The notes below the pieces were generated by a model. It saw only the letters and a list, made by a program, of their open reading frames with translations, searched no databases and had not been told where the DNA came from. A stretch of 64,000 nt of DNA from Vulcanimicrobiota bacterium (lineage in GTDB: Bacteria; Vulcanimicrobiota; Vulcanimicrobiia; Eremiobacterales; Eremiobacteraceae): positions 352,001-416,000 of the forward strand of contig CAWETU010000001.1 of assembly GCA_963812135.1 (NCBI GenBank), given 5' to 3'. The stretch's first letter is position 1, and every line of letters begins with the position of its first letter. Shown one piece after another: positions 4,847 to 48,644 of the stretch. Position numbers and translations under genes: made by a program.

Positions 4847-4881
4847 GAGCGTCCTCCATCGATATTGTGAGAAAGGTTTGA

Positions 4882-5354
4882 ATGCTCGGGGTTAACGCGC
4901 CAGCGCCATCAATCCCTGTTCCCGATCAGACGGGCACGCCTCGAAGCGTCGCGGAGTTCAAAGGTTCGTGGCTGGTGCTGTGGTTCTATCCGAAAGATCA
5001 CACCAGCGGCTGAACGAACGAGGCGTCGCAGTTCCGCGACGCGTACGCGGAGTTCACCGCCGCCGGCGCACAGATCGTCGGCGTGAGCCGCGATTCAGTG
5101 CAGTCACACGAGTCGTTCGCGCGCGAGCTCGGCTTGCCGTTTCCCGCTGCTCGCCGATACGGACGAGAAATTGTGCAACGCATACGGCACGCTCGTCGAA
5201 CGCGTCGCGGAGGACGGCACGAAATCGATGGGCCTACAGCGCTCGACGTTTCTGATCGATCCGCAGCGGCGTGATCCGTCACGTGTGGCCCAAGGTGTCG
5301 GTGCCCGGCCACGTCGTGGACGTGCTCGCGACCTTGATGGGTCTCATGGGATAG
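4882..5354 (+). CDS. bcp: Peroxiredoxin BCP/PrxQ with in-frame TGA at the peroxidatic Cys (probable selenocysteine); two apparent +1 indels near 5145 and 5264
   Basis: ATG 4882 after GAAAGG. Reads [23 protein letters not shown] (family FYPKxxTPGCTxEACxFRD), then [54 protein letters not shown] 5352-5354. Confidence 0.85.
5011..5047 (+). promoter_or_regulatory. Candidate bacterial SECIS element
   Basis: TGA at 5011-5013. Perfect 7-bp stem GCGTCGC (5023-5029)/GCGACGC (5036-5042) with loop AGTTCC (G at loop position 2), 16 nt from the UGA to the loop. Confidence 0.65.
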
Positions 5355-5925
5355 CCATCGCGCCGATCGCATCGACGCGCGCGTCATCCAGCGAATAGCG
5401 CAGCTCTCCGCCCGCGAGCACAGCGTGAACGACTCCGTGCACCGAAACGGGTTGTCCGGCGCGCAGCGCAGACCGAGATCCACGCACGTCGAAACCGACA
5501 TCCACCGCATCTGCGGCGCAACATGCCATCACGCGGCGTGAGACGGTTGCGGCATGTCCATGTGAGGGCGGCGTCCATACACCCGACACGCTGACGGAGT
5601 GGCCCAACACCGCGCGAGGATCGTCGTCGAGCCGATCGAGCAGCGCGAAAAGATCTCCGTCATGCGCGCCGCCCGGCGAATGCGTCGCGACTGCGCCGAC
5701 CGGCAGCGATCCAGGAAGCGCGAGTCCAAGCGCGATACCGATCGGCAACGCGCCGGCCAACGCCGGCGTCAGGCGAATGCGTTTCACCGCGAGCACGAGC
5801 ATGGCGATGCCGAAGCTCGCGACGACGATCGGAGGCAATGCGACGAGCGTGCGTGATGCGCCCGTCGCGAACACCGTGAGCGCCAGCCCTGCGAGCGCTC
5901 CTAGCAGCGCACGGTCGCGGGTCAT
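5344..5925 (-). CDS. DUF1980/TIGR03943 (YcgQ-like) membrane protein
   Basis: N-terminal TM helices then RRVMACCAADA motif. ATGA overlap with the upstream permease. Confidence 0.75.
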   Translation of the reverse strand: MTRDRALLGALAGLALTVFATGASRTLVALPPIVVASFGIAMLVLAVKRIRLTPALAGALPIGIALGLALPGSLPVGAVATHSPGGAHDGDLFALLDRLDDDPRAVLGHSVSVSGVWTPPSHGHAATVSRRVMACCAADAVDVGFDVRGSRSALRAGQPVSVHGVVHAVLAGGELRYSLDDARVDAIGAMAIP

Positions 5926-6779
5926 GCGCACAACGCCGCGGTCGCACAGCCGGCGGCTCCGGCGAACCATGCGAGCAGCGCGCGAGGCGTGCCGTAATGG
6001 CGGCGCAAGAGCGCGAATTGTCGCGCGTCAAGCGACTGCGATGCGATCAGGAACGCGGCTTGCGCGGGCGCGGATGCGCCGATGACCTTCGCGAGGATCG
6101 CGTCGGCGGTCGAGCACGGCGACAGCAGCGCGCCGACCACCGCGCAGACAAGCGGCGTCGCGTGCGCGCGGACGATGTCAGGGAGCAACACGAGCGCGAG
6201 GGAAGCGAGGATCGCAGCAGGCAACAGCAGGCGCACGGCCGTCGCGACCTGTGCGGCGAGTCCATCGTCAGCATGACACACCGCCTGTGGCTCGTCCGGC
6301 GCCGTTCGCACGGCGATGATCGCCCACAGCGCAGCCACCGCGAGCGAGGCGGTCAGTGCGCCCGCCATCCGGGCTGCGAGGACGTGGCGTCCGAGCACAC
6401 TGGCCGTCGCTACCAGGGCGATGGGATTGCACGCGGCGCCCCACGTCAAGGCGAAGCCGGCGACCGGCGGCGGGCAGCGACGCAACGCTCGCGCGAAACC
6501 GTTCAGGCTGCAATCGCAACCAGGCGTCAGCGCGGCGACACACGCGGCGAACGCGCTACCATGAGCGATGCGCGAGATCCACGCCGCTGCGAACGCGCCG
6601 ACGAGTACGAAGGGGCCGGCTTCGAGCACGATCGACGCGGCATACACGAAGATGCGGTATGCGGCATCGCACGCGGCCGAGGCATGGGGCGCGAGCATCG
6701 CAGGACTGCAGAGCGCGCCGGCGAGTGCGCACGCGCCCGTCGCGACGAGTCGAAAGGAGGGTTGCCGGGGGTGGTTCAC
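5922..6779 (-). CDS. DUF318/ArsP-like (YcgR-like) permease
   Basis: SIVLEAGPFVLVG, PGCDCS, NPIAL, SPCSTADA; polytopic. Paired with the DUF1980 gene. Confidence 0.75.
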   Translation of the reverse strand: MNHPRQPSFRLVATGACALAGALCSPAMLAPHASAACDAAYRIFVYAASIVLEAGPFVLVGAFAAAWISRIAHGSAFAACVAALTPGCDCSLNGFARALRRCPPPVAGFALTWGAACNPIALVATASVLGRHVLAARMAGALTASLAVAALWAIIAVRTAPDEPQAVCHADDGLAAQVATAVRLLLPAAILASLALVLLPDIVRAHATPLVCAVVGALLSPCSTADAILAKVIGASAPAQAAFLIASQSLDARQFALLRRHYGTPRALLAWFAGAAGCATAALCA

Positions 6780-46798: not shown

Positions 46799-48644
46799 AT
46801 GAGAACCAGACGGCTCATCGCCGCGAGCCTCGCGCTGGCGGTCGCGTTGGGCGTGATGCCGCGCGCCGCGCGCGCCGATCTGCAGATCGGCCGTTTCTCC
46901 GTGCAGTTCCGCAACTCGAACTACAATCTGAAGACCGGCGATATCGTGCTCACGGGCGGCGTGAGCGGCAAAGGACCGGACGGCGACTTCCGCGCGGACC
47001 GCGCGTTCGGCAACCGCGAACGCCAAGAGATCACCCTTGTCGGCAACGTCGTCGCGCATCGCAAGACCGCGACCGCGCCGGTCGAGTTGCGCAGCGACAC
47101 GGCGACGATCGACGAGCGCAGCCGCACGTATATCGCCACAGGCAACGTCAGCGCCATCGTCGGTCCGCGAACGATGAGCGCCGACTCGATGCGCCTCGAC
47201 GATGCCGCGCACGTGTTCACCCTGAACGGTAACGTGCATATCACCGAGCCGCCCGGACGGTCGCTGACGACCGGCGAGTTGGTCTATCATGACGATACCG
47301 GCGACATACAGGTGCCCGGCCCGTTGAGCGGCACGATGGAGAACGGCGATTTTCGTGCCGACGGCGCTGCGGGCAACGTGAAGACTCGGCAGCGTCACGC
47401 TCACCGGCGGTGTGGTCGTGCATTCCGGCGCCGCGAACGGCCCGAGCAAAGAGCCAATCGCGTTGTACGCGGACGTGCTGCACTACGACGGGCAAGCCAA
47501 GACGATCACCGCGACGGGCGACGTGAAGGTCGAGCAAGGCACGCAGGTCGTCACCGCACCGGTGCTGCGCCTCGACAACGCGACCGGCGACCTCCATCTC
47601 AGCGGCGGCGTGCACGGCGAACAGCCGCCCGATCGCAGCTTCGACACCAAAGAGCTGACGTATAACGTCAATAGCGGCGCGATCACCGTGCCCGGCCCGA
47701 TCAAAGGCCGCGCGCGCGAGGGCGACTTCGCGGCGGACGTCGTGCACGGCAACATGAAACTGCGCGTGTACGACCTGCTCGGCCACGCCATCGTGCGCAC
47801 GTCAGGCAAGGGCGCCAAGACACAGGACCGCACGCCGACCGCGTTGTCCGCCGACCACATCCACATCGACGAACTTGCTAAACGTTACGTCGCCGACGGC
47901 AACGCGACAGTGGCGCAGGCCGACCGAACGGTGAGCGCGCCGCTGCTGACCTTCGACGACAAGATCCACGTCGTCAAGATGACCGGCGGCGTGCACGCCA
48001 CGGAACAGCCGGATCGCAGCGCGGACACGGCCGAGGTCATCTATCACACCGACACGGGCCAGGTCAGCGCCCCATCGCAGATCGCAGGCCGTTCAAGCAC
48101 CGACGCGTTTCGCGCCGATCGCGCGATCGGCAATACGAAGACCGACATCTACGATCTCGAAGGCAACGTCGTGATGCGCCGCCAGACGCCGCGCGATAAA
48201 GACCCGACGGTCTTGACCGCGCGCGACGTGCGGATCAACGGCAAGGCGAAGACGTACACGGCGACTGGTCAGCCCAAAATAGTGCAAGGCACGAGCACGA
48301 CGACCGCACAGATCATCACGTTCAACGACGCCACGAACACCGCGCACATGAGCGGCGGTGTGCACGCCGAACAGCCGGGCGGCCGGACATTCGACACGCC
48401 GGAGCTGACCTACAATACCAAGAGCGACGATTTCAAGATGCTCGGCGGCATCACCGCGATCTTCCCGTTGTCGAAGCCGACTCCGACACCCACGCCATTT
48501 CCGTCGCCGAACAGCAGCCTCTCGCCGCAAGTGCCGTCGCCGTTCTCAAACACTTCGACGCCCGCCCAGTACGCGACGCCGTCGCCGACGCCGCCTCCGA
48601 CCCCGACGCCAAGCCCCACGCCGTCGGCGTCACCGACGCATTAG
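46799..48644 (+). CDS. Secreted protein with four tandem LptA/OstA-like repeats and a Pro/Thr-rich tail (one apparent +1 indel near 47386)
   Basis: Signal peptide ending ARA-D. Removing one base joins GNVKT to GSVTLTGGVVVH, fusing ORFs 46799 and 47412 into about 614 aa. LptA-type motifs (ATGNV, L.GNV, TA..L.Y) recur. Confidence 0.75.
46982..48470 (+). repeat. Four ~121-127-aa protein repeats
   Basis: Units start GDFRADRAFGN (46982), GDFRADGAAGN (47345), GDFAADVVHGN (47721), DAFRADRAIGN (48102). Each ends G(G/N)VH....P..R(S/T)..T.E..Y. Confidence 0.85.

Follow-up and report, generated by a model that had tools for sequence, protein, structure and literature searches.

A BCP/PrxQ-type peroxiredoxin gene with a predicted selenocysteine codon, missed by annotation in the genome of an Eremiobacterales bacterium

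Gene content of the locus

The window, a stretch of 64,000 nucleotides with a G+C content of 66% (assembly GCA_963812135.1, contig CAWETU010000001.1, positions 352,001 to 416,000), contains on its plus strand at positions 4882..5354 a BCP/PrxQ-type peroxiredoxin gene that as assembled is spread over three reading frames. From the ATG at 4882, frame 0 runs for 43 codons to a TGA (5011-5013, codon 44) and goes on with TNEASQFRD...LGLPFP. Translation yields a first segment in frame 0 (4882-5145), a second in frame +1 (5147-5266) that contains STFLIDPQ, and a third in frame +2 (5268-5351), followed by a TAG stop codon (5352-5354). A putative Shine-Dalgarno-like site on the same strand, GAGAAAGG (4869..4876), ends 5 nt upstream of the ATG, and alignment places AGGAAGG or AGAAAGG at the same position in relatives. 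Convergently transcribed is a 208-aa orf of membrane-protein character (5344-5970, minus strand), which shares 11 bases with the end of the peroxiredoxin gene and is followed by a hydrophobic 285-aa orf (5922-6779, minus strand).

The catalytic motif of the peroxiredoxin is P-K-D-H-T-S-G-U (4990-5013), so that the TGA (5011..5013), a predicted selenocysteine (Sec, U) codon, occupies the peroxidatic cysteine (CP) position of a PxxxTxxU motif. A first-pass annotation, made from the sequence of the window, had placed this TGA at the cysteine of PxxxT/SxxC, had observed that the fold goes on past it, and had noted a serine in place of the usual second cysteine. All three observations hold: the first by translation and by the corresponding column in 16 relatives, the second by homology that runs through frames 0, +1 and +2, and the third by the serine at +5 from the TGA (U-T-N-E-A-S).

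The Pfam model AhpC-TSA (PF00578) matches segment 1 with 89.1 bits over positions 1-85 of its 124, and segment 2 over positions 86-118 with 20.4 bits, under the cut-off of 26; segment 3, which is too short to score, has no Pfam match. Intact orthologs score 126-130 bits over the full length of the profile (1-124). The nearest NCBIfam models are PrxQ and thiol peroxidase (BCP), both under their equivalog cut-offs (126 bits versus 260 and 94 bits versus 140, respectively), and the window protein is therefore better described as similar to these subfamilies than as an equivalog of either. Among solved structures, BCPs are the nearest, namely 5enu (1.4e-41) and entries for Xanthomonas BCP (approximately 1e-37). 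In the alignment, the U column falls on the CP cysteine of their FYPKDxTPGC motif, and the conserved arginine is retained in the QRSTFLID of the frame +1 segment, which aligns with their RSTFL. At the alignment position of the resolving cysteine of Xanthomonas BCP, which we take to be in helix 3, the orthologs have arginine. The cysteine of EKLCNAYG is not conserved, being replaced by tyrosine in two of the aligned sequences (L024 and L025), and for that reason is unlikely to be catalytic.

Selenocysteine machinery and other predicted selenoproteins

The genome that contains the window (G000) was assembled into six contigs totalling 2.79 Mb and is estimated to be 98.4% complete. It encodes selA (C1:622181-623509, minus strand, 523 bits), selB (C1:620259-622109, minus strand, 298 bits) and selD (C1:531860-532789, 381 bits), each over the curated cut-off, and a 94-nt tRNA-Sec(UCA) (C1:612205-612298, minus strand) with an 8-bp acceptor stem and a long extra arm, recognized both by ARAGORN and by Rfam (75.7 bits with RF01852, of which the gathering score is 47). 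The selA gene adjoins selB, the tRNA-Sec gene, on the same strand, follows about 8 kb downstream, and selD is about 90 kb away. Thus a search for selA, selB, selC and selD, proposed together with the suggestion that this organism may decode Sec, found all four, and the suggestion is supported by this machinery, by the alternation of TGA with cysteine codons and by a constrained SECIS-like hairpin, both described below. Another 94-nt tRNA called by ARAGORN, a tRNA-Cys(GCA) with a long extra arm (C1:1985591-1985684), was considered as a Sec-like tRNA-Cys and rejected: its acceptor stem has three mismatches, Rfam gave no match at E <= 0.01, and it is probably a false call.

The alpha subunit of formate dehydrogenase (FdhA, C1:445237-448167, 1047 bits) is, as predicted from its gene, a canonical selenoprotein of G000: there is exactly one in-frame TGA, in the context ...NQARIUHSSTVPG..., and a 7-bp hairpin (GGUGCCC-GGUCU-GGGCACC) is found 11 nt past it. 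The genome has 13 matches to AhpC-TSA that exceed the Pfam cut-off, and three of these contain one TGA. Besides the window gene, these are C1:1282250-1282600, with an N-terminal hydrophobic leader and the TGA at the CP position of FFPKAFTEG-U-T, and C1:1200743-1201114, with the TGA at the CP position of YVLDHTLG-U-Y; both orfs are otherwise intact, and both are candidates for further selenoproteins. A genome-wide scan for in-frame TGA codons accompanied by coding signal and a hairpin was abandoned in favour of family searches: in strict form it returned 45 candidates and missed the window gene, and in relaxed form it returned 2833 candidates and was far too noisy.

Distribution of the TGA codon among relatives

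Matches to the peroxiredoxin were found in 39 of 40 relatives searched, the best match containing one TGA in 25 of them and no TGA in 14; the relative without a match has a genome that is 72% complete. In the window's own family (f1, 24 genomes), the best match has a TGA in 21 genomes and no TGA in two, and one genome has no match; in the sister family (f2, 15 genomes, all with a match) it has a TGA in three and none in 12. The single genome of a third group (f3) has a TGA in a weak match. Sixteen relatives have the TGA at the CP column, as confirmed by translation (G001, G002, G003, G005, G006, G011, G020, G013, G032, G040, G014, G015, G016, G022, G018 and G009), all with orfs that are otherwise open and conserved and that, counted from the probable start codon, are 138 to approximately 160 aa long. 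The close orthologs are all intact with about 156 aa (156-162 aa), and within the genus the amino acid identity downstream of the TGA is 78-83%. Two of the 16 genomes (G013 and G016) are unpublished, and a third genome (G010) enters only the count of 40 relatives; the conclusions are unchanged if all three are dropped.

Many other homologs have a cysteine codon (TGC or TGT) at the CP column, so that TGA and TGC/TGT alternate there, as the first-pass annotation had proposed to check among orthologs. Alternation of Sec and cysteine is a standard signature of selenoprotein families. A maximum-likelihood tree was built from 43 sequences (15 U, 28 C); five changes between U and C are needed to account for it, at least three of them forced by well-supported branches, and one Cys form (L033, of genome G021) is nested inside a U clade. 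Outside the phylum, an Armatimonadota MAG encodes a homolog (L063) with the TGA at the CP column (FYPKDDTPG-U-TVEACAFRD) and its own 6-bp hairpin downstream; therefore, the Sec form of BCP is not restricted to Eremiobacterota.

If the TGA were an ordinary stop, that is, a nonsense mutation of the cysteine codon, there would be no Sec and the peroxiredoxin would be truncated or dead throughout the lineage. A single substitution suffices to turn TGC or TGT into TGA, and the case for insertion of Sec is built on sequence comparison. However, the recurrence of the TGA at the same column in the 16 translated relatives is not due to chance, their frames downstream of it are open and conserved, and the genome of G000 possesses the full Sec machinery together with the canonical FdhA gene containing UGA.

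The hairpin downstream of the UGA codon

A candidate bacterial SECIS element was identified at 5023..5042 (plus strand), where the stem strands GCGUCGC (5023-5029) and GCGACGC (5036-5042) enclose the loop AGUUCC (5030-5035). Folding predicts a 7-bp stem and a 6-nt loop containing G, beginning 9 nt past the UGA. By itself, in a stretch of 50 nt, the hairpin is not exceptional for a G+C-rich composition (z = -1.54; 16 of 200 shuffled sequences were as stable), which would be in keeping with an ordinary stop, and it is partly fixed by the conserved peptide ASQFRD. Comparison with relatives provides stronger evidence. The hairpin holds the longest stretch of the orf (17 nt) that is invariant among the seven U-form orthologs of the genus and that of G011. 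Of the third codon positions, one of six is variable within the hairpin and 123 of 150 are variable outside it (p = 0.0014 by a one-sided Fisher test, a generous value, as are those of the comparisons of U and Cys forms, because the sequences are related). Only three of 151 six-codon windows are equally frozen, and all three overlap the hairpin; its sole variable site is a C/U opposite G, where pairing is kept. The mean fold energy of the 42 nt past the codon is -13.5 kcal/mol for 16 U-forms versus -8.8 kcal/mol for 29 Cys-forms, and among sequences with the peptide E[AG][SAT]QFRD it is -14.8 kcal/mol (n=8) versus -8.6 kcal/mol (n=24), although a few Cys-forms fold equally well (L050 at -15.4, L064 at -14.5). 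The aligned sequences thus show an RNA-level constraint on the hairpin, and synonymous sites are frozen exactly where a SECIS element would be expected, which argues against an ordinary stop; taken with the evidence from relatives, it leaves that explanation very improbable.

The orthologs L035-L041 (from G014, G015, G016, G022, G018 and G009), which belong to other genera of the window's family, form a second group with a different hairpin, GUCAGC-GGUCU-GCUGAC, located 22 nt past the UGA; its loop is GGUCU, GGUCA, GGUCC or GGUCG. The Cys form nested inside the U clade (L033 of G021, near position 1629 on the minus strand) has TGT at the CP column and yet keeps the full GUCAGC-GGUCU-GCUGAC hairpin, which suggests that Sec was recently converted to Cys here and that the SECIS element is a relic. 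It is tempting to combine these observations into one account, in which the family f1 keeps a 1-Sec BCP near-universally (TGA in 21 of the 23 genomes with a match), served by two unrelated SECIS solutions and with L033 as a relic; the combination as a whole is put forward tentatively, at slightly less than an even chance.

The two frame breaks of the peroxiredoxin gene

The first frame break, from frame 0 to +1, is located at 5140..5146 (plus strand) and consists of one extra T or C in TTTCCC: where G000 has GTTTCCCG, six relatives have TTCCCG or TTTCCG. The second, from frame +1 to +2, is located at 5264..5267 (plus strand), where G000 has one extra base in CAGC, outside any homopolymer (CAGCGG versus CA-CGG in the same six relatives). 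In this alignment both insertions are confined to G000. A frame uninterrupted apart from the UGA is found in all 16 translated relatives and not in the G000 assembly. Apart from the two extra bases, the gene keeps its start codon, Shine-Dalgarno-like site, UGA, hairpin and catalytic residues.

The strain of the window was sought in public sequencing runs, none of which holds it (the best share of words was 0.16), and the four runs from which contigs were taken (X1-X4) gave contigs of relatives only. Contigs from X4 that are 85-92% alike have one letter fewer at 5143 (two of two contigs), and three contigs from the same run that cover the second break have one letter fewer at 5264 or 5267 (depth 20/20). 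A record from X2 (record 15), approximately 98% alike over 4939-5200, also has one letter fewer than the window, with the gap unlocated, and is silent on 5140-5146.

Insertions of this kind are not confined to the peroxiredoxin gene. Long orfs with a coding-type GC pattern, taken from 800 kb of a genome of the same genus (G005), were compared with G000 by tblastn; 512 orfs matched, 186,681 amino acids were aligned, and 30 raw frame changes in G000 were classed by eye on the pairwise alignments. A single extra base in G000 accounts for 19, a single missing base for one, a ten-base gap for one and a two-base insertion for one, the remaining eight being gene ends or ambiguous. Two more single extra bases were identified through orfs of other relatives. 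In coding sequence a single-base insertion breaks the frame approximately every 25 kb, and the excess of insertions, 19 to 1, is explained more readily by a technical artefact than by mutation or decay. The reciprocal scan of G005 gave 10 raw breaks in 255 orf pairs (four "+1" and six "-1"), counted without alignment inspection, so that the break count alone does not set G000 apart; with many-contig relatives there were three breaks in 171 pairs, all near the N-termini of the queries. An initial scan with orfs of G002, G003 and G006 was marred by antisense "shadow" orfs and by gene-end effects, its relative-versus-relative control giving 16 clusters versus 21 unfiltered and four versus 10 filtered; only the sites that were checked by alignment were retained from it.

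The gene for SecA (G000:C5:291362-293652) is in three frames, with two single-base insertions and 85-93% identity on all sides of them. The matches to the SecA model are three consecutive pieces of one gene, and the genome has no other copy. The MetE gene has one break and an acetyl-CoA ligase gene has three; both are located within C5:291-334 kb, where nine frame breaks in about 43 kb point to locally poor consensus quality. Other affected genes are those for IleS, in its C-terminal extension, and for an LptC/LptA-like protein. The latter is in the window at 47382-47387 (C1:399382-399387), where a single extra base (GTGAAGACTCGG versus GTCAAG-CTGGG in relatives) splits a gene whose counterpart in G002, G005 and G006 is a single orf of 613-648 aa.

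The only SecA of a free-living bacterium cannot credibly be encoded in three frames, and the two insertions in the peroxiredoxin gene are read as consensus errors of the assembly for this reason and because of the excess of insertions. The predicted Sec-BCP/PrxQ gene is thus probably intact in the organism itself. The first-pass annotation had cautioned that two downstream indels could signify either a pseudogene or a sequencing error; the caution is warranted, as the assembly does contain two frame-shifting indels, but their pattern favours an error of sequencing or assembly. That two errors would fall 120 bp apart is unlikely if errors are evenly spread, but they are clustered elsewhere as well, with two breaks in SecA and three in the acetyl-CoA ligase.

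Alternatively, the family may consist of true selenoproteins while the copy in this strain is a genuine and very recent pseudogene, both 1-bp insertions being real and other peroxiredoxins perhaps sufficing. The orf as assembled is broken twice, and several lesions in one gene, here no more than 120 bp apart, are what a dead gene typically shows; the second insertion, moreover, is outside any homopolymer. The genome has 12 further AhpC-TSA matches above the cut-off, two with a TGA, that could compensate, and selenoprotein gene loss is described as common in bacteria (PMC1794560). Against this, the gene has no other mark of decay, with start codon, UGA, hairpin and catalytic residues in place; its shifted segments still closely match the orthologs; lesions of the same type, nearly always +1, are present in genes that cannot be dead, the only SecA among them; and both extra bases are absent from six close relatives and from the metagenome contigs of relatives. 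A recent pseudogene is accordingly considered unlikely, and consensus error is the preferred explanation.

Least probable are two further readings, in which programmed +1 ribosomal frameshifting causes the frame changes or TGA is reassigned genome-wide. Homology does run on in the shifted frames, but relatives encode the same protein in one frame, there is no conserved shift site, and none of the six aligned relatives shares the shifts. As for reassignment, TGA also terminates genes in this lineage (it is the stop codon of the G001 ortholog, for example), and the homologs have cysteine at the column in question, not tryptophan or glycine. Given how frequent single-base insertions are in the G000 assembly, its apparent pseudogenes should not be trusted at face value.

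Predicted function and comparison with known peroxiredoxins

By the sequence evidence assembled here, the gene at 4882-5354 is a genuine and ordinary gene for a BCP/PrxQ-type Sec-peroxiredoxin, a thiol peroxidase with the thioredoxin fold, that annotation has missed. SelB carrying Sec-tRNA(Sec) would bind the hairpin at 5023-5042 and insert Sec at codon 44, and the mature enzyme, approximately 156 aa long, would reduce peroxides by way of a selenolate that is converted to a selenenic acid intermediate. In view of the lack of a resolving cysteine, with serine at +5 and arginine at the helix-3 position, this 1-Sec enzyme would be recycled by an external thiol reductant.

Three known systems may be compared with the predicted enzyme. 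PrxU of Eubacterium acidaminophilum, reportedly characterized by Sohling et al. in 2001, is said to be an experimentally founded Sec-containing thioredoxin-dependent peroxiredoxin. The window protein resembles PrxU (NCBIfam NF040737, peroxi_PrxU) in being a predicted Sec-containing peroxiredoxin, but it belongs to a different subfamily: the PrxU model, of 233 positions versus the approximately 156 aa of the orthologs, gives only 41 bits with the window protein and 65 bits with its ortholog, where the cut-off is 270. The second system comprises the Cys-type BCP/PrxQ enzymes (Xanthomonas campestris BCP, 3gkk and 5iiz; 5enu), with which the ortholog aligns over its full length (E-values of 1e-37 to 1e-41), sharing the motifs FYPKDxTPG(C/U)T and RSTFLID; the difference is that the solved enzymes use cysteine where the window gene has U.

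The third comparison is with the Sec-Prx family itself. The first-pass annotation had stated that Sec-containing peroxiredoxins exist in bacteria, and PMC1088965 and PMC13188914 bear it out: Prx (PF00578/COG1225, TxxU) is a known prokaryotic selenoprotein family, among the oldest and most abundant. The Sargasso Sea set includes 43 Sec-Prx genes under COG1225 (PMC1088965), and a review of 2026 has the entry "Peroxiredoxin (Prx) PF00578 TxxU" (PMC13188914). The window gene shares with this family the Pfam domain, the PxxxTxxU motif, a predicted Sec at the peroxidatic position, the existence of Cys homologs and a stem-loop directly past the UGA. It differs in its host, which is among Eremiobacterota soil MAGs, in having no resolving cysteine, in its lineage-specific candidate SECIS element with the loop AGUUCC, and in the two frame-breaking bases of the G000 copy. 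Bacterial SECIS elements are described as stem-loops directly past the UGA with a small apical loop containing G (PMC1088965). The window hairpin resembles this fdhF type in its position, in its form, in the G of its loop and in being inside the coding region, whereas its loop AGUUCC is unlike the GGUCU loop of the FdhA hairpin in the same genome.

Conclusions

The novelty of these findings is modest: the host phylum, an uncultured one of soil, and the lineage's own SECIS variants are new, but the Sec-Prx TxxU family itself is old. According to the first-pass annotation, Sec decoding is not known to have been highlighted for this lineage, and in the literature searched no pairing of Eremiobacter* with selenocysteine was found, although the supplements of surveys may list the phylum; publications that pair eremiobacter* with seleno* appear, by their titles, to be unrelated, and those found for WPS-2 or Eremiobacter concern Selenomonas for the most part. 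General knowledge of selenoproteins is left unchanged. What is corrected is the annotation, which had missed the window gene, no fewer than three predicted Sec genes in other parts of the genome, and the counterparts of the window gene in many relatives; the phylum is also added to the map of selenium use. G000 and most of its family are predicted to decode UGA as Sec and to use it in an enzyme of peroxide detoxification whose gene is overlooked by standard callers. If the tentative account of the family f1 is true and both hairpins work, these orthologs would constitute a natural series on the replacement and loss of SECIS elements, and a widespread soil phylum would have a conserved requirement for selenium.
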